Source: Candidatus Bathyarchaeota archaeon (lineage in GTDB: Archaea; Thermoproteota; CALKCG01; B24; DRYS01). Taken from it: a stretch of DNA of 64,000 nt. A program made the position numbers and the translations under genes. The stretch covers positions 64,001-128,000 of the forward strand of contig JAGTQC010000001.1 of NCBI GenBank assembly GCA_018396535.1. The letters run 5' to 3'. Position 1 is the stretch's first letter; every line of letters begins with the position of its first letter. This document shows positions 29,389-55,400 of this stretch, piece after piece. The notes beneath the pieces are model-generated. The model was not told the origin of the DNA. It made no database searches and saw only the letters and a program-made list of their open reading frames with translations.

Positions 29389-29443
29389 AGGATTATGAAG
29401 TTATCTTGTTCCCCGTTGGGGGGATTGTTTATCGTGGGGTGTT

Positions 29444-30952
29444 ATTTTATCGGAGGCGCCTAGGAATACTTTAAGATTTCTAGATACCACACTTAGGGAT
29501 GGTGAACAGACCCCTGGCATTTCGTTAAAACCGGAGGAGAAGCTTAAAATAGCATTAGCTCTAGACGAACTTAACATAGATGTCATAGAAGTCGGTTTTC
29601 CGGCTGCATCTGAAGGTGAATTTTTAGCGGCTAAGATGATAGCTAATCAAGGGTTGAAAGCTGAAGTATGCGGTATGAGTAGAGGTGTTTTCGCAGATAT
29701 AGAATGCGTAGCTAAGAGTGGATGTAGAAGTATCCATCTAGTAATACCTTCATCCGATCTTCATATCAAGTATAAGCTCGGTAAATATAGGGAAGAAATC
29801 TTATCTATGGTTGAAAAGTGTGTTGAATACGCTAAAAGCTATGGTTTAACAGTCGAGTTATCGGCTGAGGATGGTAGTAGAAGCGATATAGCATTCTTAG
29901 AAGAATTCTTTAGAAGGGGTATCGAGGTTGGAGCTGATAGATTGTGTATATGCGATACAGTCGGTATACTAACGCCTAATAAGGCGTATAAACTATTCGC
30001 GAATATCGCTAACAAATTCTCAGGGAAAATTATAAGTGCACATTGTCATGATGATTTTGGTTTAGCTGTTGCTAATAGTATAGCTGCTGTAGAAGCTGGT
30101 GCTAGACAGGTTCATGTAACTGTTAACGGTCTAGGTGAGAGAGCTGGAAATGCTGCATTAGAAGAAGTAGCGGTAGCATTAAAAATACTATACGGATACG
30201 ATGTAAAACTGAACCTAGCTAAGATATATGAAGTATCACAGCTTGTATCTAGGATTACCGGCGTCTACGTTCAACCGAATAAAGCTATAGTAGGAGATAA
30301 TGCATTCACACATGAATCTGGGATACATACACACGGCATACTTAGAAATCCATTGACCTACGAACCTATACCGCCAGAACTGGTAGGTAGACGTAGAAGA
30401 CTAGTAGCAGGTAAACATGCAGGTAGACATGGGGTAGAAGCTATACTGAAAGATATGGGATTAAACCCGACTACAGAGCAGGTTGAGGAAATATTCCGTA
30501 GAGTTAAGGCTATGGGTGATAAGGGTAGAAAGATTACAGATGTTGATCTAAGAGTTATAGCTGAGAACGTTATGGGCATACCTAGAGCTAGGTTTGTAGC
30601 ATTAGAGGAATTAGTAGTAGTTACAGGCGATAAGATTACACCCACAGCATCGGTGAAGCTTAGGTTTAAGGATAAGATTGTGCAAGCCGCAGCCGTAGGT
30701 GTAGGACCCGTAGACGCTGCTATGAATGCAGCTAAAGCTGCTTTAAACCTTCTAGAACCTATAAAATTGGATAAATATGATGTTAAAGCTATAAGCGGTG
30801 GAACAGACGCTATAGTCGAGGTATCAGTCGTACTCAGTAAAGGTGATAGAACTGTTACATCGCATAGTGCTCGTGAAGATATCGTTCTAGCTAGTATAGA
30901 AGCTCTATTGGAGGGGGTTAACCTCTTACTCGGAGGTTCTAATGATGGTTAG
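29444..30952 (+). CDS. cimA: (R)-citramalate synthase CimA (LeuA family); non-canonical start inferred
   Basis: The frame is open from 29399 and holds FLDTTLRDGEQTPG upstream of the track's ATG (29636). HLVIPSSDLHIKYKL, ELSAEDG and CDTVGILTP resemble archaeal CimA. Confidence 0.8.
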   Translation: MLSEAPRNTLRFLDTTLRDGEQTPGISLKPEEKLKIALALDELNIDVIEVGFPAASEGEFLAAKMIANQGLKAEVCGMSRGVFADIECVAKSGCRSIHLVIPSSDLHIKYKLGKYREEILSMVEKCVEYAKSYGLTVELSAEDGSRSDIAFLEEFFRRGIEVGADRLCICDTVGILTPNKAYKLFANIANKFSGKIISAHCHDDFGLAVANSIAAVEAGARQVHVTVNGLGERAGNAALEEVAVALKILYGYDVKLNLAKIYEVSQLVSRITGVYVQPNKAIVGDNAFTHESGIHTHGILRNPLTYEPIPPELVGRRRRLVAGKHAGRHGVEAILKDMGLNPTTEQVEEIFRRVKAMGDKGRKITDVDLRVIAENVMGIPRARFVALEELVVVTGDKITPTASVKLRFKDKIVQAAAVGVGPVDAAMNAAKAALNLLEPIKLDKYDVKAISGGTDAIVEVSVVLSKGDRTVTSHSAREDIVLASIEALLEGVNLLLGGSNDG

Positions 30953-32645: not shown

Positions 32646-33145
32646 ACGAAACGAATGAGCATATAATAGCGGCGATAGTAGAGCATAAACCCGGGGTCCT
32701 ATTTAAGATAACTAACCTCATAAGGCGTAGAGGATTCAACATATCCAGCATATCTGTAGGCTCTACTGAGAATCCTAGTCTAGCTAGGATTACGATGACC
32801 GTAACAGGTGATGAAGCAACGATAGAGCAGGTTATTAAACAGTTGCAGAAAATAATCGAAGTAGTTAAAATATCTAGACTTAATCCATCTGAAAGCGTGA
32901 TTAGGGAGTTACTCTTGATCAAAGTCCATGTAGCCGATTCCAGAGCGAGAAGCGATATACTAATCTATACTCAGATATTCCGTGGTAGGATAATAGATGT
33001 AGCTCCGGATAGCATGATAATAGAGGTTACCGGAGGATCGAATAAGATAAACGCGTTTATAGAGCTTATGAAGCAATACGGGGTGAAGGAAATAGCAAGG
33101 ACAGGTATAACCGCTCTAGCTAGGGGTGAAAAGAGCCTGAAATAA
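32642..33145 (+). CDS. ilvN: acetolactate synthase small subunit
   Basis: ACT domain PGVL..RRRGFNISS, EIARTG; ATGA overlap with ilvB. Confidence 0.95.
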   Translation: MNETNEHIIAAIVEHKPGVLFKITNLIRRRGFNISSISVGSTENPSLARITMTVTGDEATIEQVIKQLQKIIEVVKISRLNPSESVIRELLLIKVHVADSRARSDILIYTQIFRGRIIDVAPDSMIIEVTGGSNKINAFIELMKQYGVKEIARTGITALARGEKSLK

Positions 33146-33202
33146 CTGCTCAAATACATAAAATATCTTTATCTTATAGGCGATGATATATTCGAGCGGA
33201 GG

Positions 33203-34135
33203 GTGCGGTATATGTTCTATACATCGATCTATGCTAAGGATGTAGAGTTAGTTTCAAAGTTTCCATGGAAGATCGGTATAGTTGGATTTATGGTATATCC
33301 AGAGCTTCAAAGGACTAATACAGGTGTGGCTGAGAAGTTAAAGTCTATACTGGATGATAGGTTTTTCGACCTTATAGAACTCTACGACGTAAGCGATGAA
33401 GATTGGGAGATACTGGAGAAGTATAGATATAGAGTCGATTTCTCAATAGGTGTTCAACCAGATATTCTTGCTAAGGGGGTTAACCCATCTTCGCTAGATG
33501 AATCTGAGAGAATTAAAGCTATCGAAGTCTTGAAGAATAAGATTAGAATAGCCGGTGAGAGGGGGATAAGATATCTAGCCTTATGCTCGGGACCATTCCC
33601 CGATAGTAATCTAGTTGAGAAAGCGAAGAAGGCTTTAGTTAATACTCTAGTAGAGCTTGCTTCCCATGCATCAAAGTATGGTGTAACGATACTACTGGAG
33701 AGTTTCGATACAAAATGGGATAGAAAGAGGTTAATAGGAAGCTTGGCTGATGCATCCGAGATTTTAGAGAAGGTTAAAGCTAGATATAATAACGTAGCTC
33801 TATTATGGGATTTAAGTCATGGCCCACTTCTCGATGAAAAACCTGAAATGTTGAGTAAGTATCGAGATCTAATAGGACATATCCATATAGGATGTGCTAA
33901 AAGTATCGATGGAAAGCTTCTTGATACACATCCAGGCTTCTATAGACCTGGAGCTATAAACGACGAAAGAGATGTAGCTAGGCTACTAGAAATCCTATAC
34001 GATATAGAGTATAAAGGAGCCATAAGTTTCGAAGTTAGACCAGAGGAAGGACAGGATCCGAGAGAGGTTTTAGCTACAGCTAAATCCGTATTGGTTAGAG
34101 CGTATCAAATATTCCTAGAGAGAAGACTTAGCTGA
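33203..34135 (+). CDS. sugar-phosphate isomerase/epimerase (xylose-isomerase-like TIM barrel)
   Basis: LLESFD, WDLSH, HIHIG, D.HP and FEV metal-binding motifs. Confidence 0.8.
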   Translation: MRYMFYTSIYAKDVELVSKFPWKIGIVGFMVYPELQRTNTGVAEKLKSILDDRFFDLIELYDVSDEDWEILEKYRYRVDFSIGVQPDILAKGVNPSSLDESERIKAIEVLKNKIRIAGERGIRYLALCSGPFPDSNLVEKAKKALVNTLVELASHASKYGVTILLESFDTKWDRKRLIGSLADASEILEKVKARYNNVALLWDLSHGPLLDEKPEMLSKYRDLIGHIHIGCAKSIDGKLLDTHPGFYRPGAINDERDVARLLEILYDIEYKGAISFEVRPEEGQDPREVLATAKSVLVRAYQIFLERRLS

Positions 34136-34147
34136 GATGATGATTCT

Positions 34148-35137
34148 ATGCTAAAGATATATCGAGATGAGGATGTATCGCTAGAACCGCTTAAAGATGA
34201 GTTAATAGCTGTTATAGGCTATGGGAGCCAAGGAAGAGCACAAGCACTAAACTTTAGGGATAGCGGATTAAACGTTATAGTTGGCGTTAGATTTGGAGGA
34301 GAATCCTGGAAATTAGCTTCTAGCGATGGGTTTGATGTATATCCAATAGATGAGGCATGCGAAAAAGCAGATGTGATACATATACTTATACCAGATATGG
34401 TTCAGCCTGAAGTATATAGTAAGTATATAGAAGCTAAGCTTAAACCTGGTAAGACCCTAGGATTTGCTCACGGATTTAATATACACTTCAAGCAGATAAT
34501 TCCACCAGGATGTGTGGATGTGATTATGGTTGCACCTAAAGCTCCTGGACCTAAAGTCCGCGAACTATATCTTAAAGGATTCGGTGTACCTGCACTAGTG
34601 GCGGTACACCAAGATTATACTGGGTTTGCTTTGGATAAAGCTCTAGCTATGGCTAAAGCTTTAGGGTGCACTAGAGCTGGCGTCATAGAGACGACTTTTA
34701 AAGATGAAACTGAAAGCGACCTTATAGGGGAGCAGACAGTCCTAGTGGGAGGTATATTAGAGCTTATAAAAAATGGTTTTGAAGCACTAGTCGAAGCAGG
34801 GTATCCAGAAGAGTTAGCGTATTTTGAAGCGTGTAACGAAGCTAAACTTATAGTCGATCTGATATATGAAGGAGGGTTTACGAAGATGCTTAGAAGCGTA
34901 TCAGATACAGCTAAGCATGGTGGTTTAACAGTTGGACCTAGGATCATAGATCAACATGTCAAGGAGAATATGCGTAAAGCTATTGAATACGTGAAAAGTG
35001 GAAGATATGCTGAGGAGTGGATTAAAGAGTATAAGGCAGGTATGCCAAACCTTAAAGCTCTTCTATCGAAGATAGAGAACCATCCTATAGAAATTATAGG
35101 AAGAAGACTACGTAAACTATCAGGCCTAGAAGAGTAG
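34148..35137 (+). CDS. ilvC: ketol-acid reductoisomerase
   Basis: [36 protein letters not shown]. Confidence 0.97.
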
Positions 35138-35159
35138 AGGTAAACTTTTCCTCTCAATC

Positions 35160-35957
35160 TCAAGTTTTTATAGTTGAAAGCTTATCTAAAGCTTCTTTAA
35201 GTATACTCCAAGTCTTACCATCCATTAGACTTAGACGTCTAGCATACTCTATGAAGCTAACCCTACATTCACCATAATATGGGTTTAATTCCTGTATCTC
35301 CCTTATAACATCAAATATCCTTCCAAACCTTCTGAGCATCCTCAAAGTATATTTCAGTGACGCTGTAGAGTATTTCTCTATATCATCTGGTTTGGCATAT
35401 TCTACCAGCGTTAGAGCAAAAGCCATATAGGATAGATGGTGTATACACTGTATGATAGACATCATTTTGTCATGCTCATCTACAGTTGAGAGTATAACCT
35501 CTAACCCAGTATCCTTTAATAACGATACAAATTTGCTAAGGGATTCATTAGAGCATCTAGCAGGTATAACTACGATCTTAAGCTTCGATATCTTCCTAAC
35601 CGATGGACCAAATAGAGGATGAAGGCTTACATACTCTATACCCTTCGGTAGAATCTTAGAGACTTCTGGTACGACATAAGTTTTCACAGAAGATATATCT
35701 GAAATTATAGACCCAATCTTCAACCAGCTGGATAGCTTAGATATCGTATCTACAACAAACATAGACGGAACAGTAACTATGCATATATCTGCATACGCTG
35801 TAGAGTCGTACCCACCCCAATCGACACCTATACGTCTAGCTACAAGCTTAGCTCTATCTAAATCTCTACTAACTAAGATAATCCTGGATACATATGGTTT
35901 AAGTAGCCGGGATAGGAGACGCCCCATCCCGCCTGAACCTACTACAGCTACAGTTAA
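35160..35957 (-). CDS. tyrA: prephenate dehydrogenase; non-canonical start inferred
   Basis: Rossmann TVAVVGSGGMG extends upstream of the track ATG; DISSVK, HPLFGP, EHDKMM. Confidence 0.85.
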   Translation of the reverse strand, partial: LTVAVVGSGGMGRLLSRLLKPYVSRIILVSRDLDRAKLVARRIGVDWGGYDSTAYADICIVTVPSMFVVDTISKLSSWLKIGSIISDISSVKTYVVPEVSKILPKGIEYVSLHPLFGPSVRKISKLKIVVIPARCSNESLSKFVSLLKDTGLEVILSTVDEHDKMMSIIQCIHHLSYMAFALTLVEYAKPDDIEKYSTASLKYTLRMLRRFGRIFDVIREIQELNPYYGECRVSFIEYARRLSLMDGKTWSILKEALDKLSTIKT

Positions 35958-37030
35958 GTTACCTTCCTGTATGAACCTAGAATTTTCACGAATAACGCTC
36001 TCCCCCTTAAATCTTCTATAGCTTCCTTACAAGCATCATCATCTCTATGACCTTCGAAATCTACGTAAAACATATATTCCCAAGGTCTACCCTTAATCGG
36101 GCGGGACTCTATCTTAGTCAAATTTATACCTCTCTCCGCGAACACACTTAGAGCTTTATATAAAGCACCAGGTTTATGATGCGTAGAGAATATTATTGAA
36201 GTTTTACACCCATCCATCCTAGGAGAATCTTCCCACCCTAAGAGAAAGAATCTCGTGTAATTATCTCGATAATCTTCTATACCTTTAGCTATTATCTCAC
36301 CTCCATACAATCTAGCTGCAAGTTCTGAACCTATAGCAGCCATGTACTCACTTTCTAACGCCATCTTAACGGCTCGACTTGTACTCGTAGCTTCACGTAT
36401 CTCCACACCTTTAAGAGCTCTTTCTATGAAATTCCTACACTGATTTATAGCTTGGGGATGACTTACAAGTATCTTAACATCTTCTATCTTAATTCCTGGT
36501 TTACCTATAAGGTTGAGTCGTATCCTATGCTCGAGCTCGCCGCATATCTTAAGCTTAGTTTCAAATAGTAGATCTAAAGTCTCGTTTACACCCCCTTCTA
36601 TAGAGTTCTCGATAGGGACTACACCATAATCTACCTCCCCTTCTTCGACTGCTCTAAATACATCCCTTATAGATGGGTATTCTTTAAATTCGATAGACTC
36701 CTCTAACGGGAAGAATCTTCTAGCAGCCTCCTCGCTGAAGCTACCTCTAGGTCCTAGAAATGCTACCTTTGGAGCATTTTGAGATGCACGACACAAATCT
36801 ATAATCCTACGATATATCGACAAAACAGTATCAGGGTTTAAACCAAGTTTTAAAGATTCTAACCTAACATTAGAGAGAACTTCCCATTCCCTAATTAAGT
36901 CAATGACAGGTAACCCCTCTCTACGCTTAATTTCACCTATGACTTTTGCTATAGAAGACCTTCTAGCTAGAAGCTCTACTATACGTTTATCTATCTTATC
37001 TATTTCTCTACGTAGCTCATCTATATTCAT
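35954..37030 (-). CDS. pheA: chorismate mutase/prephenate dehydratase
   Basis: LRREIDKID CM domain; FLGPRGSFSE, PIENSIEG, SHPQA, NYTRF, LTKIESRP. Confidence 0.96.
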   Translation of the reverse strand: MNIDELRREIDKIDKRIVELLARRSSIAKVIGEIKRREGLPVIDLIREWEVLSNVRLESLKLGLNPDTVLSIYRRIIDLCRASQNAPKVAFLGPRGSFSEEAARRFFPLEESIEFKEYPSIRDVFRAVEEGEVDYGVVPIENSIEGGVNETLDLLFETKLKICGELEHRIRLNLIGKPGIKIEDVKILVSHPQAINQCRNFIERALKGVEIREATSTSRAVKMALESEYMAAIGSELAARLYGGEIIAKGIEDYRDNYTRFFLLGWEDSPRMDGCKTSIIFSTHHKPGALYKALSVFAERGINLTKIESRPIKGRPWEYMFYVDFEGHRDDDACKEAIEDLRGRALFVKILGSYRKVT

Positions 37031-38123
37031 CCTTTATCACCGTCGGTATCAATCCTTGATTCACGCAGTGATCTGCTATTACGAAGGCTAAGCATGCTTC
37101 TACAACTGGAAGAGCTCTTATACCTATACATGGATCATATTTACCCCATGCTTCTAAATAATCATTTGTCATAGTTTTAAGGTTGATTGTTTCAACCCTC
37201 TTCCTTATGGTAGATGGGGGTTTAAAAGATACACGGACATGTATAGGGCTACCGGTAGATAATCCTCCGAGAACACCTCCACATTTATTGCTCTTTAGAT
37301 AAACTTTACCATCCGATATAACGTAAGGGTCTATGAACTCTGTCCCCTTCATAGAAGCTGCTTCAAATCCTAGACCGATACTTAAAGCTCTAACACCTGG
37401 TATAGCGAACATCATGGAGGCTATATCTACATCAAGTCCATGAAATATGGGATCGCCTAAACCCGGAGGTACATTGAAAGCGAAGACTTCAACCATACTA
37501 CCTATGCTATCACCTTCCTCTATCGAGTGCTTCAACACATCTTCCATACTTGGTATTAATTCAGGTATAGCGCATCTAACAGGGTTTTCATACACCTTAC
37601 GTAATTCATCTATGGTCGGAAGTCTATCAGAACATACACATCCTATCTGGCATACATGACCATAAACTTCTATACCTATTATTCTGAGAAGCTTTTTAGC
37701 TATAGCTCCAGCTATTACAAACGATATGGTAATTCTACCTGAGAATCTACCACCGCCTCTATAGTCGTTGAAGCCCCCGTATCTTACGTAAGCTGGATAA
37801 TCCGCATGACCAGGTCTGGGTTTAACTCTAAAAACCTCGTATGGCCTAGAATCTACATCTCTATTACTCACGATTACGCATATAGGCGCCCCAGTTGTAT
37901 AACCATCCAGAACGCCAGAGACGATCTTAGCTATATCCTGCTCAGTTCTACTAGTAGAGTATGGTGTGGAACCAGGTTTACGTTTATCAAGCTCCCTTTG
38001 TATATCATCTTCACTAAGTTTCAATCCAGCCGGACAACCGTCTATTACAGCTCCTATCAGTATACCATGACTCTCACCGAAGCATGTAAGTGTAAGCCGT
38101 CTACCGAAGCTATTAGCCGACAA
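37017..38123 (-). CDS. aroC: chorismate synthase
   Basis: FGESHG, RPGHAD, GGGRFSGR, GGVLGGLS. Confidence 0.96.
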   Translation of the reverse strand: MSANSFGRRLTLTCFGESHGILIGAVIDGCPAGLKLSEDDIQRELDKRKPGSTPYSTSRTEQDIAKIVSGVLDGYTTGAPICVIVSNRDVDSRPYEVFRVKPRPGHADYPAYVRYGGFNDYRGGGRFSGRITISFVIAGAIAKKLLRIIGIEVYGHVCQIGCVCSDRLPTIDELRKVYENPVRCAIPELIPSMEDVLKHSIEEGDSIGSMVEVFAFNVPPGLGDPIFHGLDVDIASMMFAIPGVRALSIGLGFEAASMKGTEFIDPYVISDGKVYLKSNKCGGVLGGLSTGSPIHVRVSFKPPSTIRKRVETINLKTMTNDYLEAWGKYDPCIGIRALPVVEACLAFVIADHCVNQGLIPTVIKDEYR

Positions 38124-39402
38124 TCTTGAACCTTCCTCCTATAGCTTCAAGATCTGCTAAAAACTTAGGGTAAGATTTAGATACTGATTCAAAGTTATCG
38201 ACTATAACTCCTCTACGACTACCTAAACCTATCACAGCTAAGGCCATAGCGATTCTATGATCTCTCCAAGAATATGCGTATCCTCCATCTACACTTCCAG
38301 ATCCATAGATGATTATCGAATCATCATCTACTTCGACTCTAACACCTATACGGATAAGTTCTGATACGATAGCTTTCAATCTATCTGACTCCTTAAACCT
38401 TAACCTTCTACAACCCTTAATCCTTGAGATACCCTTACAAAAACATGCTAGAGCTGCAAGTGGAGGAGCCAGATCAGGCGAATCCCTAATATCTATGTCG
38501 AATCCATTTAGAGGGCGGTTACCCTCTACCTCTACATAATCATCTCCAAAATGAATATTCACACCTAAACCTTCCACTATATCTACTATGCATCTATCTG
38601 GTTGTATATCATACTTAGTTAAACCATATATTCTAACCTTGGATGGAATAATGGAACACGCTACTATCATAAAAGATGAAGAGGAATAATCGCCTGGAAC
38701 TTTACATATCGTAGGTGTAATATATTCCTGTCCAGCTTCAACTCTGAAATAGCTATACCCATCACGATCGATTCTGATTCCAAAATCCCTTAATATGTTT
38801 AGCGTCATATCTACATAACCCTTAGATTCGAGTTCTCCCACAACTTCTAGTAAGGAATCTTTCCTCGCTTTAGGTAAAGCAAAGAGAAGCCCAGATACAT
38901 ATTGAGAACTTATACTACCGTCAATCCAGGTGGATCCACCAGGTATACCTCCACCGAATACGACTATAGGTGGAAGACCATTCATACGTGTAGAGTATAT
39001 CTCTACACCAAGTCTTCTCAATGCATCTAATAGAGGAGCCATCGGTCTCATCCTTAAGGATTCATCACCTGTTAACACCGTTATCCCTGATGCTAACGGT
39101 GCTATAGAGGATAGAAGACGTATAGCTGTAGCAGATCCGCCGCAATCTATGATATCACTAGGTGTTTCTAGATGACCTGAAGATGCTATCTTAAATAGGT
39201 ATTCATTTGACGATACCCTAGCTCCGAAGTTTTTACATGCCTTAACTGTTACGATTGTATCATCGCATATCGATGGATTCTCTATAATCGTATCACCGTT
39301 AGAAAGTAGTGATGCTATAAGATATCTGATCGTATAGGATTTCGACGGCTGGCTACGTATAGAGCCCTCTAATCTCTCGGTTGGTTCAAATAAAACCTTC
39401 AT
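38113..39402 (-). CDS. aroA: EPSP synthase
   Basis: SKSY, RPM, SSQYVSG, KESDR, DHRIAM, KSYP. Confidence 0.96.
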   Translation of the reverse strand: MKVLFEPTERLEGSIRSQPSKSYTIRYLIASLLSNGDTIIENPSICDDTIVTVKACKNFGARVSSNEYLFKIASSGHLETPSDIIDCGGSATAIRLLSSIAPLASGITVLTGDESLRMRPMAPLLDALRRLGVEIYSTRMNGLPPIVVFGGGIPGGSTWIDGSISSQYVSGLLFALPKARKDSLLEVVGELESKGYVDMTLNILRDFGIRIDRDGYSYFRVEAGQEYITPTICKVPGDYSSSSFMIVACSIIPSKVRIYGLTKYDIQPDRCIVDIVEGLGVNIHFGDDYVEVEGNRPLNGFDIDIRDSPDLAPPLAALACFCKGISRIKGCRRLRFKESDRLKAIVSELIRIGVRVEVDDDSIIIYGSGSVDGGYAYSWRDHRIAMALAVIGLGSRRGVIVDNFESVSKSYPKFLADLEAIGGRFKIVG

Positions 39403-39410
39403 AATACACT

Positions 39411-40298
39411 CTACTCCTCTCTACAACTGGATACATAACTATTGTTTATATCGACAATCCTAACTTCCCCATCTAGGTTAGACCATACGTCGACTACTCT
39501 ATCTACATCATCATCTTTCACAATTGCAGCTAACGCAGGCCCTTTTCCAGATGGAGAAGCAGCTAACGCTCCAACATTTAAAGCACCTAGCAGTGGATCT
39601 ATATCATAACCTAAAGCTAGAGAGACAGCTAGACCATTAAGATTCATAGCATCCATCCAGTATCCAGCTATAGAGAGACGCCAAGCCGATCTAAAAATAT
39701 TCTCGAACCGTTTAAAACGTGCTACATCTACCTCAGCTGTATAGCATTCGCTTTCAGGTATATGTAATACTACCTTCAACCTACCCCTAATTTTAGATCT
39801 ATGTATGATATCACGAGTAAGGTTATCGGTAATGGTTAATCCCCCAAGCATAGATGCTGATGCATCATCGAAAGCTCCTGTAATCGTAACCCCTGCTTTA
39901 ATAGATGCATTAACAGCCAAGTCTAGAGCAGTTCTTAGTTTATCGTTAAAGTTGGCGAAACGTAACCCCAGAGCTTCAATAGCTGCAAGCACGACAGCAT
40001 TCGAAGCTGCGCTACTACTTTTTAATCCCCTAGCTATAGGTATGCCGGATCTTATCTTAACCTTAGCTTTATATCCATTCCTTAATCCTACATAGCTAGC
40101 TACCTCTGAAAGACACGTTTCCACCAACTTTGTATCTTTCGGTTGGAAACCTTCGAATTCAATGCTAATTCCATCACCGGATTCTATCTCCACACATGCT
40201 TCGAGACGTAAATCTATACTTAAAGCCGCACCTAGACCTGTAGCTAAAGCGTTAACAATAGATATGGCGGCAAAAGTCGTTGCTCTGCCTTTACCCAT
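39411..40298 (-). CDS. aroK: archaeal shikimate kinase (GHMP family)
   Basis: ISIVNALATG.G, GLKSSSA, TITGAFDDA, SGKGP. Confidence 0.95.
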   Translation of the reverse strand: MGKGRATTFAAISIVNALATGLGAALSIDLRLEACVEIESGDGISIEFEGFQPKDTKLVETCLSEVASYVGLRNGYKAKVKIRSGIPIARGLKSSSAASNAVVLAAIEALGLRFANFNDKLRTALDLAVNASIKAGVTITGAFDDASASMLGGLTITDNLTRDIIHRSKIRGRLKVVLHIPESECYTAEVDVARFKRFENIFRSAWRLSIAGYWMDAMNLNGLAVSLALGYDIDPLLGALNVGALAASPSGKGPALAAIVKDDDVDRVVDVWSNLDGEVRIVDINNSYVSSCREE

Positions 40299-42907: not shown

Positions 42908-42915
42908 TTATCAGT

Positions 42916-44792: not shown

Positions 44793-44801
44793 CTTTCACA
44801 T

Positions 44802-46034: not shown

Positions 46035-46050
46035 TACTATCCATCACCTC

Positions 46051-46071
46051 TATATGCATATGATGCATATA
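46051..46071. promoter_or_regulatory. 9-bp inverted repeat beside the lysC SD (possible operator)
   Basis: TATATGCAT-atg-ATGCATATA abutting the GAGGTGA SD on the minus strand. Confidence 0.35.
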
Positions 46072-46123
46072 CTCTCCCTTACAGCTACCTACTTGTGATG
46101 CAAAGATAACGCATAAATATGAC

Positions 46124-46387
46124 TTATAAACTTATCTCTCCTTCACCGATAGCCCCTTTAGTCGACTTTCGATAAGCTCTCCAAGCCATATATATGGATA
46201 TACCTATAGCTATACCGAAAGCTATAGATATCATCGTAACCGCAACTGTTATCTCCATATACATACCGGAATATTTAAAGCGAGGGAGGAAGTAGAGCCA
46301 TAAAAAATAGAGTATGAATGCTAGTAGAATCAGATTTATGGCTGTTAGAATGACAGGCCTGGATTTACTACCCAATTTGTTCATCAT
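46124..46387 (-). CDS. small two-TM membrane protein
   Basis: Two hydrophobic helices; overlaps the upstream gene. Confidence 0.65.
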   Translation of the reverse strand: MMNKLGSKSRPVILTAINLILLAFILYFLWLYFLPRFKYSGMYMEITVAVTMISIAFGIAIGISIYMAWRAYRKSTKGAIGEGEISL

Positions 46388-46625
46388 CCCCTATAGACTC
46401 ACCTCTACAGTACACGATACCTCTAACTCTTCTGAGAAAGTTTGAACATAGAAAGCATTGTATGAATGAAACTTTCTGCTTCAATACTGGGCAATCTACA
46501 GCTTCTTTTTTCATCCTATTCACCATGGTTTTACTAGTCCCCTCCAACTCGCTGATAAGCTCCTTGGGAATCTTTAACGCTTTGTTAACTTGCTCAACCT
46601 TAATCTTAAATTTAGCATCATCCAT
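46368..46625 (-). CDS. small Cys-rich hypothetical protein
   Basis: C-x11-CxxC-x12-C pattern (CPVL..CFLC..YC). Confidence 0.75.
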   Translation of the reverse strand: MDDAKFKIKVEQVNKALKIPKELISELEGTSKTMVNRMKKEAVDCPVLKQKVSFIQCFLCSNFLRRVRGIVYCRGESIGDDEQIG

Positions 46626-46684
46626 ACCGCTTAACCCATAAATGCTTATAGATCTAAGGGTTATAAAGCTATTCTCTAAGAGTA

Positions 46685-47641
46685 ATGAGTATGCGAGATA
46701 CGCTATTAAGTAGAAGCGTTAAAGACTACCGCTTAAAGGAGTATATGCCCATTAGCGAACTCATAGAATGCATGCAACATAGTGGCGGTTTCACAGCAAA
46801 GAATCTAGCTGAAGCTGTAAGAATACTTTCGGAAGTATTAAGCGATGATAGCTATACTCTATTATTTTCATTTCCAGCTTGCATAGTAGCTACAGGTCTT
46901 AGGGGCGTTATAGCTGATTTCATAAGCAGAGGTCACGTTGATGGTATTGTTACGACAGGCGGGACCATAGATCATGATATAGCTAAGGCTTATGGCAATT
47001 ACTATCATGGATCCTTCGATCTAGACGATATCCTTCTGAATAGACTCAATATACATAGGTTAGGAAATGTTCTGATCCCTATGGAGAATTATGGTTTACT
47101 TATAGAATCTAAGATAACACAGATATTAGATGAGTTAAGTAAGATTAAATGTAGATGGAGTGTACGAGAATTGTGTTGGGAGTTAGGTAAGAGAATAGAT
47201 GATGAAAATTCCATACTTAAAGCGTTATACCTACGTAGGATTCCGTTATATTCGCTTGGAGTTCTAGATTCATGCTTTGGATTCCAATTATTCCTATATT
47301 CTAGAAGAGGGAAGTTTGATCTGGATTTCTGGAGCGATATGGGTAGTCTTCTAGATCAGATATACGAAGCTGAGAAACTGGCTGCATTAATAGTAGGCGG
47401 AGGAATAAGCAAACATACAGTGATATGGTATAGCCAATTTAGAGGCGGGCTAGATAAAGCCATATATGTAACAACTGCGGTCGAATATGATGGTAGCCTT
47501 TCAGGAGCTAGACCTAGAGAGGCGATAAGCTGGGGTAAATTGAAGCCTGAGGCAGATCATGTAGTAGTCGATGGAGAGGCTACGATAATACTACCCATAC
47601 TGCTACTAGCAGTATATGAAAAACTTAGCAAGGATAAATAG
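46685..47641 (+). CDS. dys: deoxyhypusine synthase
   Basis: TGLRG, TTGGTIDHD, HRLGN, GGGISKH, DGSLSGARPREAISWGK. Confidence 0.96.
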   Translation: MSMRDTLLSRSVKDYRLKEYMPISELIECMQHSGGFTAKNLAEAVRILSEVLSDDSYTLLFSFPACIVATGLRGVIADFISRGHVDGIVTTGGTIDHDIAKAYGNYYHGSFDLDDILLNRLNIHRLGNVLIPMENYGLLIESKITQILDELSKIKCRWSVRELCWELGKRIDDENSILKALYLRRIPLYSLGVLDSCFGFQLFLYSRRGKFDLDFWSDMGSLLDQIYEAEKLAALIVGGGISKHTVIWYSQFRGGLDKAIYVTTAVEYDGSLSGARPREAISWGKLKPEADHVVVDGEATIILPILLLAVYEKLSKDK

Positions 47642-47644
47642 ATT

Positions 47645-48400
47645 TTAAGTATACAACATTAGTATTACACTGGAGAGTGTAATAATTACCATTTCAAGTT
47701 TTGTTAAATAATTTTTCACTAATATTATCACAAATAATGGCTTCGTCTGTTGGAGACATACCATTACTGAGCCATCAGTTTAAGTTAAAGTGTAGAATAA
47801 GAACATATGTCTAAGGGCAATACCCATACCAGACTTCTACAGAGATTAAACAGATACGTATAAAGGCATTTTGAAGCTGAAAGTAGAAGACATAGAGTGA
47901 TTGTTGAAATATCCCTATGGTGGAGGTATTTCATATGCTTAGTCCATATTTCCTGATAGTGTAGCCAAATCCGCTGAATATTATTCCTTAGCATCTCTTC
48001 CATATGTCGTTAAAAGCGGTACTAGAATAGAGCAAAGGATTATAAATGCCATACCTAGCATTAACGTATAAGTTGTTCTCCTCTTCAAAATCAGGTAAGC
48101 GAAGATTATTAGTAAATTAGGAATTTATATAGCTGTTAAGGATGATGCCATAGTTACGCCAAGTTTTCCATATCCATATAATTGTAGTATTATACATGTG
48201 CTACTAGTGATATAGGTTCATATCAATCCATCAGTAGAACTATAGCTAATGGTATAAAAGGTACCAAACCTACGATTATTAAGCTTAATGAAACGGTTAG
48301 GAGGCCTGTATATTCGATGCATCTTCTTGTAGATACGCAGTCCATAGGAGGAGCACGGTTATTGCTAATAGAGTTTCTATCCAATACTAAAGGGGGTATT
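47645..48400 (-). pseudogene. degraded DMT/EamA-family transporter
   Basis: Fragments YGYGKLGVTMASSLTAI*IPNLLIIFAYLILKRRTT..LGMAFIIL and QTKPLFVIILVKNYLTKLE resemble the two EamA repeat ends; multiple stops and a frameshift. Confidence 0.55.
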
Positions 48401-48408
48401 CGATACCC

Positions 48409-48813
48409 TTATTTTAAAAGCTTAAGCTTTCCTGTTATTTTATCTACAAGTTCTATCGGAGCGGGCCCTATAGCTAGACATGTTACTGTTTCAGGTGGAA
48501 GCTCCGTTAACCCTTTATCCTTTATCAAAGCTATTGGCAGATTCAATTTCTCAGCTTCACATTTCAATCTTAAAAGCTCTTCCAACGTATTTACGTAAAG
48601 TACTATCTTCCTTTGCCCCTCCTTCATCCATCCTTCCCACCATATAGGTTTATGGACTCTAGCATTTTCCGAAGCCTCGACAGCTGCATGTGCTACTTGA
48701 GCACAAAGCTTACCTCTCGATAAATTCAGATCCAATCTAACGATTATGTTCTGAGTATACTTAAAAGCATTAGATGAGTCGAATGTTTCTATGTAATTAA
48801 TATAATCGTTCAT
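48409..48813 (-). CDS. pth2: peptidyl-tRNA hydrolase Pth2
   Basis: [28 protein letters not shown]. Confidence 0.95.
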
Positions 48814-49124
48814 CGAGGAGTAAGCTTCACCTCTATGTGGACTTCTTCTGGTATTCTTATCCTCATGAACCTTCTCATAAAACTATCGTTGGCAGGCACC
48901 TTTATTAAGCGTTTATGTATCTTTAAAGTCCATCTATCAAACGTATGACTACCTTCACCACATGGAGTTTTCCTAGTTACTATCTTTATACGCTTAGTAG
49001 GTAGAGGTATAGGACCTGATATAGGCACACCTGTTTTCTCAGCTACCTCCTTTATCTCTCTACAGACCTCCTCCAGTTTTTCTAAATTAGTCGATACCAA
49101 TTTAATCGAAGCTACTTGTGACAT
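48810..49124 (-). CDS. rps10: 30S ribosomal protein S10 (uS10)
   Basis: [23 protein letters not shown]. Confidence 0.97.
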
Positions 49125-49191
49125 AGCCTTCTAACCAAGTGAGAAAGGAATTAAGCGAATATTTTAACTTTTCACTGAAATAAAAAATGGA

Positions 49192-50508
49192 CTACTTCTT
49201 GACCTCGAGGGGGACCTTCTGTGTTATTTCTTTCACTATACCTGCAGCTATAGTCATGCCCATATCTCTTATAGCAAATCTGCCTAACTGCGGAAATTCT
49301 GAGTATAGCTCTGCTACCACAGGTTTAAGCGGCTGAAGCCTTACTAAAGCAATATCACCGGTTCTAAGGAATGATGGATGATCTTCTATAACTTCACCAG
49401 TTCTTGGGTTAATCTTAGCTATAAGCTCCACAAATTTCACAGGTACAGTAGCAGTATGTATGTGCAACACCGGTGTATAGCCTGCAGCTATAGCAGTCGG
49501 ATGATACACGACGACTATTTGACCTATGAATTCACTTACAACTGTTGGTGGATTATCTAAAGGACCAGCTACATCACCCCTACGGATATCTGTACGGCTT
49601 AACCCCCTAACGTTGAATCCTATGTTATCACCAGGTAAGGCTTCCTTTATCCTTACATGATGTGTCTCTATGGATCTCACCTCACCTATCTTACCTGATG
49701 GAGCAAATATAACCCTATCACCCTCCTTAAGTACTCCTGTTTCAACCCTACCGACAGGGACTGTACCTACACCGGATATGCTATAGACATCCTGTACAGG
49801 TATCCTTAAAGGCTTATCGATAGGTTTTGGCGGAACTTCAAAGTAGTCTAACGCCTCAAATAATGTTGGACCCTTATACCATGGCATCTTGTCGCTACGT
49901 TTAACAAGGTTGTCGCCAGTCCAAGCAGATACAGGTATTATGGGTATCTTGGATACATCGTATCCGACAAGCCTTAGAAGACGTTCTATACCTGATTTAA
50001 CTTCATTGAATCTCGCCTGACTCCAGTTTACAGATGGATCATCCATCTTATTGATAACTACTAGAAGCTGGTTTACACCGAGAGTCTTTAGTAGGAATGC
50101 ATGCTCCCTAGTCTGCCCCTGCGGACCTATACCAGCTTCATATTCACCTTGCTTAGCAGAGACTACTAGTATAGCACAATCAGCTTGACTAGCACCCGTT
50201 ATCATATTCTTTATGAAGTCTCTGTGACCAGGGGCATCTATCAAAGTGAAGAAGTACTTACTAGTCTCAAACTTCATATAACATAAATCTATGGTTAAAC
50301 CTCTTTCTCTCTCTTCCTTGAGTCTATCTAGAACCCATGCAAACTTAAAGGTCTCTTTACCTAGAGCTTTAGCTTGCTCCTCATATTCCCTTATAGTCTT
50401 CTCATCTACAGCCCCTATTAGGTATAATAGGTGGCCCATCATAGTACTTTTACCATGATCAACATGCCCGCATACCACTAAGTTGAGATGGGGTTTACTA
50501 GAGCTCAT
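49192..50508 (-). CDS. tuf: elongation factor 1-alpha
   Basis: GHVDHGKST, DAPGHRDF, NKMD, GRFAIRDMG. Confidence 0.98.
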   Translation of the reverse strand: MSSSKPHLNLVVCGHVDHGKSTMMGHLLYLIGAVDEKTIREYEEQAKALGKETFKFAWVLDRLKEERERGLTIDLCYMKFETSKYFFTLIDAPGHRDFIKNMITGASQADCAILVVSAKQGEYEAGIGPQGQTREHAFLLKTLGVNQLLVVINKMDDPSVNWSQARFNEVKSGIERLLRLVGYDVSKIPIIPVSAWTGDNLVKRSDKMPWYKGPTLFEALDYFEVPPKPIDKPLRIPVQDVYSISGVGTVPVGRVETGVLKEGDRVIFAPSGKIGEVRSIETHHVRIKEALPGDNIGFNVRGLSRTDIRRGDVAGPLDNPPTVVSEFIGQIVVVYHPTAIAAGYTPVLHIHTATVPVKFVELIAKINPRTGEVIEDHPSFLRTGDIALVRLQPLKPVVAELYSEFPQLGRFAIRDMGMTIAAGIVKEITQKVPLEVKK

Positions 50509-50603
50509 CTCTGCTCTTGAATATCCTTAGAGGAGCCTATTTATAAACTCTACCTTAAATGAAGTCGTAGTAGAAGTATCGTAAAGTAAAGACTATTCAA
50601 AAC

Positions 50604-51191
50604 CTACCTAGAAGCTGCTGCGATTCTCTCCAACTCGTCCCTTCTTTGTATAGCATATGATCTAGTGCTACCTTCAGCTGCTAATATAAGCTCATCAGCG
50701 AGACATTCATCTATAGTCTTAGGATTCTTCCAAGCAGCTCTCCTAGCACCTTCCACTATCCACCTTAATGCAAGATCTAATCTACGCATAGGCGATATAT
50801 CGACTGCTTTAAAGTATACTATACCACCATATACAACTTTAGTTACATCTTCGCATGGAGCAGCATTCTCTAGGGCTCTTACAAGAACCTCTATGGGGTT
50901 TCTACCAGTTCTTAGGTATATTAAATCAAATGCATTTTTAACTATCCTTATAGCCTTAATCTTCTTACCTGCATTCTTGCCAGGTCTCATAAGCTGGTTT
51001 ACAAGTCTCTCGACTATAGGCACATCTGCTTTACCAAACTTTCTATGTTCGTGCCTACCGCCTGTATACGGTATGATAACAGGCTCAAGACAGATGTATC
51101 TCTTTAAGCTTGGGTCCCTTACCTCTATACCTGTATATTCCCACTTACCGAAGAGCTTAATACCTTTATACAGGAAGTCTATGTTGCTCAT
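50604..51191 (-). CDS. rps7: 30S ribosomal protein S7 (uS7)
   Basis: LFGKW, VPIVERL, AVDISP.RRLD, ERIA..SR. Confidence 0.97.
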
Positions 51192-51197
51192 ACTCGA

Positions 51198-51623
51198 TTA
51201 CCTCATAGGCTTTTGAACTTTACCTTGAACTAGTAATTTAAGCGGAACACCATTAACCGTCGTAACTTTAAACCTTACACCAGGAATATCACCCATAGAT
51301 CTACCTCTAGTACCACCTATACTCTCTATTATAACCTCGTCATGCTCATCTACTACATTCAAAGCACCATCGCCCGGGAGAAAGGCTGTTACAACTTTAC
51401 CATTCTTTATAAGCTGTACACGTACACATTTCCTTATCGCGCTATTAGGTTGTTTAGATTCGATACCAACTTTCTCAAGAACTATACCTCTAGCCATCGG
51501 AGCGCCTTCTAGAGGGTTGGCTTTAATATCCAACCCTAGCATCTTACGCTTATACTCTCTAAGGCTCCACCTGAATTTCTTTCTCTTCTTCTTAAGATTC
51601 CTAGCTGCAAATTCGCCTGGCAT
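51198..51623 (-). CDS. rps12: 30S ribosomal protein S12 (uS12)
   Basis: [27 protein letters not shown]. Confidence 0.98.
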
Positions 51624-51698
51624 GGCTTAACCCTAACAGCTATCTTACCTAGAAAAGGACGTAAACCGCTTACTTAAAAACTTACCTACGGTTAATGT

Positions 51699-52139
51699 TT
51701 ACGCTTCTCTTATAACAACATTATCTATATCGAGGTAGCGTTTAGCTATCTTTCTAACCCTATCTATATTCTTTCCGTTCTTACCTATAGCTATGCTTTT
51801 ACTCTTCGATTCGACTATAGCTATAGCGATCTTACCTTTGCTTGGTCTTTCAACTATACGAATCTCCTTAACCTTAGCTGGCATAAAAGCATTCATTAAG
51901 AGCTTTATAGGATTATCGCTATACTCCACTATCTCTATAGACTTTCCTAGAATTTGCGATAATCGTTTGACATTAATACCATTTCTACCTACAGCTTTTC
52001 CGATATCTCCTTCCTTAACTATGAATATCACTCTACCTCTTTCACTATCTATTATACAATCTTGGCATTCAATTTGAGCTATAGTCTCGAGTAGAGTTAT
52101 ATACTGCATCTCATCCTTGGTCAACCTTATCTCAGGCAT
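51699..52139 (-). CDS. nusA: archaeal NusA-like KH-domain protein
   Basis: Two KH GxxG loops (GRNG, GKNG); conserved position in the cluster. Confidence 0.95.
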   Translation of the reverse strand: MPEIRLTKDEMQYITLLETIAQIECQDCIIDSERGRVIFIVKEGDIGKAVGRNGINVKRLSQILGKSIEIVEYSDNPIKLLMNAFMPAKVKEIRIVERPSKGKIAIAIVESKSKSIAIGKNGKNIDRVRKIAKRYLDIDNVVIREA

Positions 52140-52145
52140 AATCTA

Positions 52146-52463
52146 TCACCCAAGTTCCATACTTACAAGTTCGAGTATGTTACTATCCCCTGGATCCCTT
52201 ATACCTAAGGCGGATACCGGGAATGGTTTACCACACACTCTACCAAGTTCTATACTCGACCCCTTATAAATGTATATGGGTATTCCTGCAAGTTTACAAT
52301 AGTATGATATGCTATCGGCTAGATCTTTAGGGGTATTCTCAGCTAAAATAACTAGCCTGACCCTCCTGAACATAACGGATTTAAGCGTTGATTTACTACC
52401 TATATATACCCTGCCTGTTCTTACTGCGTTAAGTATCGACCTAGATATCTCAACCGTGGAGAT
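52146..52463 (-). CDS. rpl30e: 50S ribosomal protein L30e (eL30); non-canonical start inferred
   Basis: Conserved AVRTGRVYIGSKST lies upstream of the track ATG (52373); in-frame TGA at 52467-69; ELG..CGKPF, DPGDS. Confidence 0.9.
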   Translation of the reverse strand: MSTVEISRSILNAVRTGRVYIGSKSTLKSVMFRRVRLVILAENTPKDLADSISYYCKLAGIPIYIYKGSSIELGRVCGKPFPVSALGIRDPGDSNILELVSMELG

Positions 52464-52477
52464 AGCTCACCGACCTC

Positions 52478-55400
52478 CTAGCTTTCATTAGATGATATTC
52501 CCACAGGCTCCATATAAATATCTACAAACCCTGTACCTATTGGAGTTACCTGTCCTACTATTATATTTTCAGTTACACCTTTGAGCTCATCTAGAGCTCC
52601 TCTAACAGCTGATTCCACTATACTTGGTACCGTTATCTCAAATGCAGCTTTAGCTAACGGACTAGGCTTCTGCCCAGCTACTCCATGGCGCCCTATCTGC
52701 GTGATTTTTCCAGTTCTAGTCATCATATCTGCAACAAGCATAACATGTCTCACATCTATATCTAAACCGCCACCTATTCCTTGGAATACATTCATCATCT
52801 CATTTATGATAACAGCTCTAGCCGCTTCTATTCCCAATACATCACAAATTTCGAAGAAATTATTAGTCTCCGTCCTCGACGGATCAACTCCATGAACTTC
52901 GACGACATCTGCAAGGTTAGATCCATCTGCTAGTAGAATCCATTCACCTCTATCCTCAGCTACCTGAATCCTCGCTATACCTTTCACGCCCTTCACGTGA
53001 ATAGATAGTATCTTTGATACCAGTATTCTTAGAGATTGCTCGTCAGCTATCCTGCCATCTCTATATCTAGCTATCACAACACCACGTTCAGGTACTACCG
53101 ATAATTCCACTTCTTTCATCTGAAGTTTATCTGATAGTAAATCGTATGATATACCGCGAGCATTCATCTCATCCACGTTAAGTATAAATTCTATACTACC
53201 AGTATCTATGTCCAGCAGATATTTCGATACTATATCCTTAAATGTTGTATAAACAAGCTCCTGAGCTATCTTAACTGCTTTCTCACGGTCGTAACGATAG
53301 GCTTCGATTAACCTTATAGTCATGATAGGTGTAGACGGTGTTCTACGAGCATCCACAATCTCTATCAATCTAGGTAGACCTAGTGTTACATCCCTTTCCT
53401 TAACACCAGCCCAGTGAAAGGTTCTAAGAGTCATCTGCGTGCCAGGTTCACCTATAGACTGCGCTGCAATTATCCCTACAGCCTCTCCGGGTTCTACCTG
53501 TGCATCTTCATATGCTCTATAAGCTTCTTCTAGTATTCTAGCTACGAGTGTTTTAGATGCTTTAATTTTAATGGATACATCTCGAATATCATCTAGTATG
53601 GATTTAGGTAAAATTTTCTCGAACTTAGATATAAGCTGCTCTATCTCGAATTCCGAAGCAGAAGGCTCCCCTAAACCTATGCCCTTGAGTGTAAGCTCAT
53701 TGCATAATCTAGTTATATTCACAGGTTTACCATGATCACTTTTAGATGGATCGACACCATCCTCACCATATTTAAATTGAACTATAGCACCTAATATATC
53801 GCGTACGGTCCCATCATATTCCACTCTAACAAGTTCTAACGCGTGTATAAGCCTCCTCTGTAAATAACCGCTCTGCTGTGTTCTTACGGCTGTATCTACT
53901 AACCCTTCTCTACCACCCATTGCATGGAAGAAGAATTCTGTAGGAGTTAATCCTTTAAGGAACGAGGATTTAACGAAGCCTCCCGCTTCTGGGTTTGGAT
54001 CTCTAGGTTTGAAGTGCGGCAACGCACGATCCCTTAATCCTCTAGGAACCCTACGTCCTCTCACAGATTGCTGCCCAAGACAAGCAGACATATGCCCTAT
54101 GTTAAGTGCTGAGCCCCTAGCACCAACTCTACTCATTATAACACCTCTATTCTCCATGGTGAATGATGATTCAGCTATTTCATCACATTTCTCCCTAGCC
54201 TTAGCTAGTTCATCCATTATCATTATTTCTAGACTCTCTTCCATGCTTTTACCTGGAAGCTTAAGCAACTTACCTTCCTCAGCTTGTCTTATTATTTCGA
54301 TAATCCTGCGATTAGCTTCATCCAATACTCTACGTATCTGTTCTTCGCTTTCTCCACGCAGTATAAGCTCATCTAAACTATATGAAAAACCTCTCATCGA
54401 AATGAACGTATTCAGGAGCTTACACAGCTTAGTTATGAATATTCTCCCTGCTTCACCACCATACTTCTTTACGTAAACATGTAGTAGCGTATCTGGTTTC
54501 TCTACACCTATAGCACCCTTATCGATAACCCCCTTTATTAGTACACCATTTTTAACGACTATTATACCATCATCAGGACATTCTTCATCTGGGGATGCGT
54601 GTTTATGTTTACATACGGATGATTTGCCAATATAGTTAAAATCTTTAGGTAAAAGTAGACTAAATATTTGTTTACCACTCCATAATGGTTCTGGCTCTTT
54701 AACTATAGGCGGCGGTAAATCGCCCGTATATTCTATAGCAGCTAGGAGCTTCCCAACCTCATCTTTAGTAAGTAAAGTTTCCCTACGAGTTAACAGATAT
54801 CCTGCTGTAAGGTAATCCCTCGTAGCCCCTATTATGGGGGCACCGTATCTAGGGGATATTATCTGTGTCTGGACTTGAGCTAGAATTCTAGCTTCAGCTT
54901 GGGCTTCCTCAGATTGAGGAACGTGAAGATTCATCTCATCTCCATCAAAATCTGCGTTGTAAGGCGTGCATACGGCTAAATGCAATCTAAATGTACGGTA
55001 CGGTAGGACTTTCACTCTATGAGCCATTATAGACATTCTATGGAGTGATGGTTGCCTATTGAACAGAACTATATCTCCATCTCTCAGATGTCTCTCGACT
55101 ATGTAGCCTACATCGAGTTCTTCAGCAATACGCTCCCTATCAGAGAATTCAAGTCTTATACGTCTTCCATCAGGTCTTATAACGTAGACAGCACCAGGAT
55201 GATTAAATGGCCCACGTTTAACAAGCTCCTTCATCTCCTCTATATTCCAAGCAGTAACCTTTTCTGGTACAGTAAGCTTCATAGCTATCTCTAAAGGTAC
55301 ACCGACTTCATCGATTTCTAGGTTTGGATCTGGTGAGATAACCGTCCTGGCCGAAAAATCTACACGCTTACCAGAGAGATTCAGCCTAAATCTGCCTTCT

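Follow-up and report, generated by a model that had tools for sequence, protein, structure and literature searches.

In Escherichia coli, only a handful of genes are known to be translated from near-cognate start codons, the AUU of infC among them, and NCBI translation table 11 lists CTG, ATT, ATC and ATA as alternative starts. Initiation has been measured in bacteria from all 64 codons (bioRxiv 10.1101/063800), and archaea are usually assumed to use only AUG, GUG and UUG (PMC4705826). Among frameshifting systems, the prfB site combines a short sensor open reading frame (ORF), a CUU_U or UUU_U slip and an internal Shine-Dalgarno (SD) stimulator (GG_GGG) (PMC5009743), and 'hungry-codon' frameshifting has been described in E. 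coli (Gallant and Lindsley 1992, in the passages of PMC8211752 and PMC5009743 that cite it). The single archaeal programmed frameshift in a 2021 review is a -1 case in fucA1 (PMC8211752). Here we analyse a 64,000-nucleotide (nt) stretch (the window, G000:C1:64001-128000) of a 1.41-Mb metagenome-assembled genome (MAG) in 14 contigs, called G000, from an uncultured Candidatus Bathyarchaeota archaeon known from hot-spring metagenomes, whose nearest public relatives are hot-spring Bathyarchaeia MAGs. Three of its genes, encoding a LeuA/CimA-family synthase, prephenate dehydrogenase (tyrA) and ribosomal protein L30e (rpl30e), are intact, and each is truly without an in-frame ATG, GTG or TTG start. 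With somewhat better than even confidence, we would attribute this to two mechanisms together, namely near-cognate initiation led by an SD element (rpl30e, probably tyrA) and a frameshift within a short leader for the LeuA/CimA-family gene.

Each gene was defined by its stop-to-stop ORF and translation, with ATG, GTG and TTG counted as canonical starts, and family N-termini were placed with Pfam and NCBIfam models. The original prediction, made from the letters of this DNA, had held that in all three genes the N-terminal motif lies between an in-frame stop and the first ATG, with no earlier ATG, GTG or TTG, and this was borne out in each. The codons that it had named as starts are likewise found, with TTA at 35957-35955 (overlapping the pheA TAA), ATC at 52463-52461, and ATT at 29444 or TTA at 29447. 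The LeuA/CimA-family locus has the following features.

29399..30952, plus strand: stop-to-stop ORF of the LeuA/CimA-family synthase, which opens an ilv-type operon; first ATG/GTG/TTG at 29636 (codon 80)
29374..29387, plus strand: putative BRE/TATA (B recognition element and TATA box) promoter-like GAAACATTTTTATC, with the same motif in the relatives G001 and G002
29416..29433, plus strand: leader unit copy 1, TTG GGG GGA TTG TTT ATC, probably decayed, a tandem duplicate of the next unit
29434..29463, plus strand: leader mini-ORF GTG GGG TGT TAT TTT ATC GGA GGC GCC TAG (MGCYFIGGA, then stop), with the synthase body in the +1 frame
29446..29451, plus strand: proposed slip site UUU AUC, where Phe would occupy the P site while an Ile codon waits in the A site; slipping by +1 would yield UUA UCG, in the synthase frame
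29444..29446, plus strand: in-frame ATT, an alternative start and the only near-cognate codon of the synthase frame inside the leader

The first canonical codon of the synthase ORF comes after LRFLDTTLRDGEQ, and position 2 of the Pfam HMGL-like model aligns with residue 25. The gene had been named cimA, a name that the family models do not uphold: the CimA models stay under their cut-offs (TIGR00977, 257 bits versus 450; NF042433, 258 versus 950), and the models whose cut-offs it does pass are NF002085, for the 2-isopropylmalate synthase subfamily, and TIGR02090, for archaeal LeuA/CimA/homocitrate. We keep cimA below as a short label for the locus. The isoleucine codon in the leader hints at a substrate in the isoleucine branch. 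The transcript start predicted from the BRE/TATA motif falls at ~29405-29412, downstream of an ATG at 29395. In this genus (G001 and G002 are congeners of G000, each assembled independently) the leader unit is duplicated in tandem, and the first copy in G002 is broken, carrying a stop and reading CTT ATC.

The leader layout recurs well beyond the genus. The motif start-(G/A)GG-N6-TTT-ATY was found at the 5' end of the gene in 38 loci with 35 distinct leaders, from Bathyarchaeia, Syntrophoarchaeum and one Halobacteriota MAG, and in every one of the 38 the gene lies in the +1 frame of the leader. All 35 distinct leaders begin with ATG or GTG, with a G-rich SD ~7-8 nt upstream, and all carry TTT, never TTC, followed always by an Ile codon (ATC or ATT); the encoded peptides include MGYRFIE and MGWYFIIEL beside the MGCYFIGGA of G000. 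In 16 of the 38 loci an in-frame canonical start is missing, and in several the leader ATG is overlapped or closely preceded by in-frame stops. Within G000, only the cimA leader fits this pattern, and Rfam gave no family match at 29200-29700. Just 5' of the leader unit, TCCCC (29410-14) and GGGGGG (29419-24) could form a small hairpin (29405-29424); relatives have TTCCC-GAGA-GGGA at this place, overlapping the leader SD, and the element may gate leader translation.

A corresponding layout precedes trpE in relatives. Among the distinct trpE loci fetched from metagenomes, 63 of 71 have ATG-(A/G)GG-NAT-NNN-NTT-TGG with trpE in the +1 frame; NTT stands before the Trp codon in all 63 leaders, which start with ATG or GTG, and many of the trpE bodies run on for 20-150 codons without an in-frame start. 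Examples with trpE in the +1 frame are ATG AGG GAT TGC TTT TGG in G013 and ATG AGG GAT CAC GTT TGG in G009. At three loci (G001, L265 and L266) the leader ATG is fused in frame with trpE, and the TGG is lost. Across the class as defined in GTDB, trpE was found in four genomes only. The trpE of G000, outside the window (G000:C1:~138122-138190, minus strand), follows an in-frame TAG and lies in the +1 frame behind a mini-ORF, MVMCMGDLVWCSKKA and a stop, which contains GTT TGG; judged by its sequence, this mini-ORF belongs to the trpE leader family of the 63 metagenomic loci, in diverged form.

The codon that follows the proposed slip site matches the pathway, being Ile ahead of the ilv-type operon and Trp ahead of trpE, and by their layout the two sets of leaders are one leader module. 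Because the same module carries Ile or Trp before the matching operon, and NUU_U is the slip of prfB, a +1 frameshift at UUU-AUC (29446-29451) from GTG 29434 is favoured. A conserved element, (A/G)GG(G)NAUY or GGGGUG, which is SD-like in its sequence, stands 2-6 nt before the slip codon in the cimA and trpE leaders; if (G)GGNAUY is read as an internal stimulator, the in-frame ATY is explained without being a start. The LeuA/CimA-family gene would then have no start of its own, and we infer that ribosomes start at the SD-led GTG 29434 of the nine-codon leader, so that enzyme synthesis would need the +1 shift at UUU-AUC, favoured by the SD-like GGGG(U) a few bases upstream and by slow decoding of the Ile codon. 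The leader would thus sense isoleucine, with a construction like that of the prfB site. More generally, we judge it an evenly balanced possibility that the archaeal LeuA/CimA-ilv operon, and trpE in relatives, are switched on by a +1 frameshift in a leader of 6-10 codons, with the slip at NUU occurring when charged tRNA for the end product (Ile or Trp) is scarce.

As in prfB, a short zero-frame ORF, the putative sensor, precedes a protein that lies wholly in the +1 frame, the proposed slip is of the NUU_U type (exactly so in the trpE leaders), a G-rich SD-like element stands a few bases 5', and a slow A-site codon would set the rate of shifting. It differs from prfB in that the waiting codon is a sense codon for the end product and not a stop read by the gene's own product, in its archaeal setting, in the UUU_A slip proposed for cimA, and in the spacing of the SD-like element (2-6 nt, not 3). 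The leader therefore appears to work like prfB without being a member of the prfB family, since its A-site codon is sense (Ile or Trp) and not a stop. With 'hungry-codon' frameshifting it would share a P-site tRNA that slips when the A-site aminoacyl-tRNA is scarce, whereas the E. coli effect is an error in laboratory constructs and not a conserved device heading biosynthetic operons. Attenuation at the bacterial leaders ilvL and trpL is similar in placing a tiny leader ORF with codons for the pathway's own amino acid before the operon; the leaders described here have only one or two regulatory codons, and they overlap a gene that has no start of its own.

The other proposed mechanism, near-cognate initiation, would apply to rpl30e, whose features are as follows.

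52146..52466, minus strand: rpl30e ORF, stop to stop; first ATG at 52373 (codon 32)
52474..52478, minus strand: SD GGAGG, overlapping the rpoA stop TAG (52480-52478)
52461..52463, minus strand: ATC, codon 2, 10 nt past GGAGG, the most likely start
52452..52457, minus strand: ACG GTT, codons 4-5, alternative starts

Position 2 of the NCBIfam L30e equivalog model aligns with residue 5 of the ORF. GGAGG or GGGGG stands 10 nt 5' of a conserved ATC TCC in G000, G001 and G002, and SD spacing and conservation together make ATC, as originally predicted, the most likely start, with ACG and GTT as further candidates. Three codons past the ATC, and 19-21 nt from the SD, G001 and G002 have GTG where G000 has GTT, which would leave the protein unaltered were this codon internal. 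Where other families have their ATG, the three congeners carry ACG, GTA or CTG (ACG in G000). Directly upstream of rpl30e, a single 1283-codon ORF (52478-56329, minus strand) appears to be an unsplit RNA polymerase subunit A, with A' and A'' fused.

The tyrA gene, which is present only in the three congeners, offers three candidate starts.

35160..36026, minus strand: tyrA (prephenate dehydrogenase) ORF, stop to stop; first ATG at 35927 (codon 34), inside the GxGxxG loop (GSGGMG)
35954..35956, minus strand: TAA stop of a pheA-like gene, with a 4-nt overlap TTAA with the tyrA TTA; TTGA in G001, TTAA in G002
35955..35957, minus strand: TTA, codon 24, candidate start 1, homologous to TTG of G001 and at the usual family N-terminus
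35991..35993, minus strand: ATT, codon 12, candidate start 2, kept in the three congeners past a purine-rich SD-like stretch inside pheA
35970..35972, minus strand: ATA, codon 19, candidate start 3; CTA in G002

Family N-termini align with residues 18-25 in the NCBIfam and Pfam models, and a single G-to-A change turns both the pheA stop (TGA to TAA) and the tyrA start (TTG to TTA). The predicted TTA start is supported by its position at the family N-terminus and by the TTG of G001; it has no SD at working distance, UUA has two mismatches to the initiator anticodon and is not near-cognate, and two other candidates compete with it. We tentatively prefer TTA, consider ATT a weaker candidate and think ATA improbable. 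The conservation of the ATT says little because the region is also pheA coding sequence. G001 and G002 also have a TTG far upstream, but in G000 a stop comes after it. The gene probably belongs to the near-cognate class, or else it may restart after termination of pheA. A PheA-TyrA fusion made by a -1 slip on the GGGGG run at the pheA 3' end was rejected, the run being missing in G002, as were TTAA-type stop/start overlaps as a recurrent restart signal, since nearly all other non-canonical 4-nt overlaps have a canonical start 1-2 codons downstream.

When relatives were checked for ATG, GTG or TTG, the layouts proved to be shared, yet canonical codons stand at or beside two of the sites: the rpl30e GTT of G000 is GTG in G001 and G002, and the tyrA TTA of G000 is TTG in G001. 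On these grounds the tyrA and rpl30e sites are read as decayed canonical starts and not as a separate start-codon system. Of the original claim that an SD-like element or a stop/start overlap points to each non-canonical codon, the SD holds for the rpl30e ATC and the overlap for the tyrA TTA, which has no SD at working distance; the cimA SD serves the out-of-frame leader start. A supposed 'NTGA' signal, in which a canonical start overlaps the in-frame stop (ATGA at cimA, GTGA at rpl30e), was dismissed as chance, the base before TGA being equally often A, G, T and C.

Beyond the window, a scan for homology 5' of the first canonical start revealed an excess of such genes in G000. Genes were called with a simple codon-usage finder and ranked by long coding-like stretches 5' of the first canonical start, and a Pfam scan of stop-to-stop ORFs placed a complete N-terminus 5' of the first ATG, GTG or TTG in ten more genes, so that at least ten join the original set.

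PdaD: complete Pfam N-terminus, with model position 1 at residue 2, right after an in-frame TGA
MetRS: complete Pfam N-terminus, with model position 1 at residue 6
CbiA/MinD ATPase: P-loop 5' of the first ATG
Rad50, ABC ATPase, FtsY and LysE: complete Pfam N-terminus 5' of the first canonical start
Xylose-isomerase-like protein, PolD-DP2 and DUF488: complete Pfam N-terminus 5' of the first canonical start

The script that paired SDs with near-cognate codons required an exact SD 5- to 7-mer; the 16S 3' end (anti-SD) is not present in the G000 assembly, and the spacing from SD to canonical starts has its mode at 8-10 nt. An exact SD with a near-cognate codon at 9-10 nt was found in nine of the ten genes plus L30e (CTG 5, ATC 2, ATT 1, ATA 1). 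CTG makes up only 0.5% of in-frame codons, yet its association with SDs (ratio 3.1, p = 0.014) ranks fourth, behind those of ATG, TTG and GTG. The MetRS CTG and its spacing are kept in all three congeners, with ATG at the homologous codon in other families; the PdaD ATC directly follows the in-frame TGA, and G002 has ATG there; and the Rad50 CTG and LysE ATT are also found in G001. Between G000 and G001, divergence in Rad50 is non-synonymous in the spacer codons and mostly synonymous past the start. Genes with at least 30 coding-like start-less codons amount to 2.0% in G000 and 1.7% in G001 (on the fetched half of its genome), against 0.2% in two control Thermoproteota genomes under the same pipeline, a comparison that must allow for the controls' having more in-frame ATG, GTG and TTG and hence a two- to threefold lower power of detection. 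A blastp extension of G000-G001 orthologues 5' of the first canonical start overcounts, since 5' untranslated regions are also conserved at this divergence, and it was not used for the estimate.

These observations suggest that in this genus a small but clear share of SD-led genes initiate at CUG, AUC, AUU or AUA, 9-10 nt past the SD, with the near-cognate codon often standing exactly where relatives have AUG, and that some of the affected genes are essential. Relaxed start-codon selection in this lineage, as originally proposed, is thus upheld in part: apparent starts other than ATG, GTG and TTG recur, occur in excess genome-wide and are kept in congeners, whereas cimA is better explained by its leader ORF and the tyrA TTA is one of three candidates. 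Near-cognate SD-led starts are themselves of a known kind (infC; translation table 11). They resemble the bacterial cases in using CUG, AUC, AUU and AUA at normal SD spacing, presumably read by initiator tRNA, and differ in their number, with at least 11 genes in a 1.4-Mb genome, including MetRS, PolD, FtsY and L30e, and in the archaeal machinery (aIF1/aIF2).

The initiator tRNA of G000 is ordinary (CAT anticodon, A1:U72), and an altered initiator tRNA was accordingly discarded as the cause of relaxed starts. The initiation factor aIF1, which is reported to discriminate against non-canonical starts (Hasenohrl 2006/2009, in the part of PMC8211752 that cites this work), is present at G000:C1:287613-287831. 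The basic loop of the genus reads EKVRFGK, versus EK(R/K)(R/K)(Y/F)GK in most other genomes of the order, so that Val replaces the first Arg/Lys, and the genus has the lowest SUI1 scores among 16 related genomes. This substitution is only a lead to a possible cause. A parallel may be drawn with eukaryotic non-AUG initiation, which is policed by eIF1: the factor family that sets start-codon stringency is present here as well, and the loop substitution would be a candidate for a functional link.

Three of the top-ranked candidates were set aside from the start-less class. Cbf5 (G000:C1:62867-63658, just 5' of the window), aIF5B (G000:C12:4066-5712) and aIF5A (G000:C7:49013-49309) have ORFs that open in the middle of a Pfam domain with no start codon, and with their N-terminally cut domains they look like second exons of intron-containing mRNAs. 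An intron-containing Cbf5 mRNA is known in Crenarchaeota. A short hairpin of the agacc..ggtct type stands immediately before the Cbf5 and aIF5B ORFs, also in G001. An 893-codon ORF at G000:C9:97916-100597, possibly a surface protein, has 267 coding-like codons before its first ATG, GTG or TTG and no informative N-terminal Pfam domain. In one control Thermoproteota genome, a FEN-1-like gene (G023:C1:~488580-489473, L192-L211) has a GVNLKDLV N-terminus 5' of its first canonical start; isolated cases therefore exist outside Bathyarchaeia.

Other readings of the three genes in the window, and of the trpE leaders, have to be set against the combination of a leader frameshift with near-cognate initiation. 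It is unlikely, in our estimate, that all three genes start in frame at a non-canonical codon (cimA at ATT 29444 or TTA 29447, tyrA at TTA, rpl30e at ATC), with the mini-ORF only competing or tuning. The position of the tyrA TTA speaks for such a reading. So does the in-frame ATY, which is kept in 24 of the 35 cimA leaders and in all 16 loci without a canonical start and leaves room for an ATY start, and BA2 (L045) has an in-frame ATG one codon upstream of the 29444 position, where most leaders have ATC or ATT; the codon that follows encodes A, V, T or I, typical second residues. The SD, however, lies ~14-15 nt from the ATY, outside the working range, as opposed to ~7-8 nt from the leader start; leaders of the f3 clade have no in-frame ATY; UUA differs from AUG at two positions; and an in-frame start does not predict a trpE module (ATG-RGG-NAT) in which TGG replaces ATY behind an NTT that never varies, nor does it sit well with the constant TTT of the 35 cimA leaders. 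A conserved out-of-frame leader with its own canonical start and SD, and with the body in the +1 frame, explains cimA better than the TTA or ATT start once proposed for it. Less probable again is a leader that involves no shift of frame and, by stalling ribosomes or through reinitiation, lets the cimA or trpE gene start at a weak in-frame codon. Leader stops do fall inside the gene's 5' end, with 1-40 nt left to the conserved domain, and the Halobacteriota versions overlap a canonical in-frame TTG; against this, the loci without a canonical start have no conserved start-like codon past the leader stop, stalling at the sensed codon would leave the ATY hidden under the ribosome and turn the regulation in the wrong direction, and the invariant NUU and fixed +1 frame would be left unexplained. 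Several further points weigh against the combination that we favour. In the cimA frame, substitutions at positions 7 and 10 of the leader leave the residues unchanged, and only two of three positions re-pair after a cimA slip at UUU_A, which is weaker than the slips of trpE or prfB. At rpl30e, family models let the protein begin at codons 4-5, of which codon 5 is GTG in the congeners, and no exact SD (5-mer) precedes any tyrA candidate. ATT, ATC and ATA showed no significant individual SD enrichment in the genome-wide count, where they may go undetected because they are too common. What is shown, finally, are the layouts in the sequence, their conservation, the relations of frame and the match between codon and pathway; initiation and frameshifting at these codons are predicted from them.

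It is extremely improbable that the sites reflect a draft genome with pseudogenes or with mistakes of sequencing or assembly, in agreement with the original prediction, which had called assembly errors unlikely. G000 is a MAG of 14 contigs, and one base sets it apart from its congeners at the rpl30e GTT (G001, G002) and at the tyrA TTA (G001). Logan contigs from two hot-spring metagenomes of different studies, at depths of 169 and 51, nonetheless each span 33000-52600 in one contig and differ from the window by 1 and 5 letters, none of them at the tyrA or rpl30e starts, and a third metagenome run spans 35904-36418 with zero differences; the compared runs may contain the source sample, and they chiefly rule out consensus errors. 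The contig comparison covered 33000-52600, and the cimA start layout is the same in G001 and G002, as are the layouts of the other two genes. The tyrA TTA is also found in G002, the cimA layout without a canonical start in 16 loci from several families and the MetRS CTG in three genomes, and all gene bodies are whole and conserved, several of them essential. RNA editing that restores the starts is very improbable as well. CTG, ATA and TTA are each one change from a canonical start, by C-to-U (CUG to UUG) or A-to-I editing (AUA or UUA to AUG-like or UUG-like), but neither type could repair ATC, ATT or GTT, so that at least two editing systems would be needed in addition to near-cognate initiation.

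Our literature search returned nothing on recurrent near-cognate starts in Bathyarchaeia or other archaea, and nothing on leader or frameshift control of archaeal cimA or trpE. If true, the leader would be the first +1 programmed frameshift in Archaea and a translational amino-acid sensor not described in the literature searched, offering cells a simple new means of gauging an amino acid as they translate. Standard gene finders accept no start besides ATG, GTG and TTG, and in this lineage they cut the catalytic or nucleotide-binding N-termini of L30e, MetRS, PolD, FtsY, Rad50, TyrA and CimA; such truncated N-termini corrupt the annotation of Bathyarchaeia as well as their metabolic reconstruction and structure prediction. 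If CUG and AUH starts are tolerated in its essential genes, the lineage would be well suited to testing how the eukaryote-like initiation factors of archaea determine the stringency of start-codon choice.

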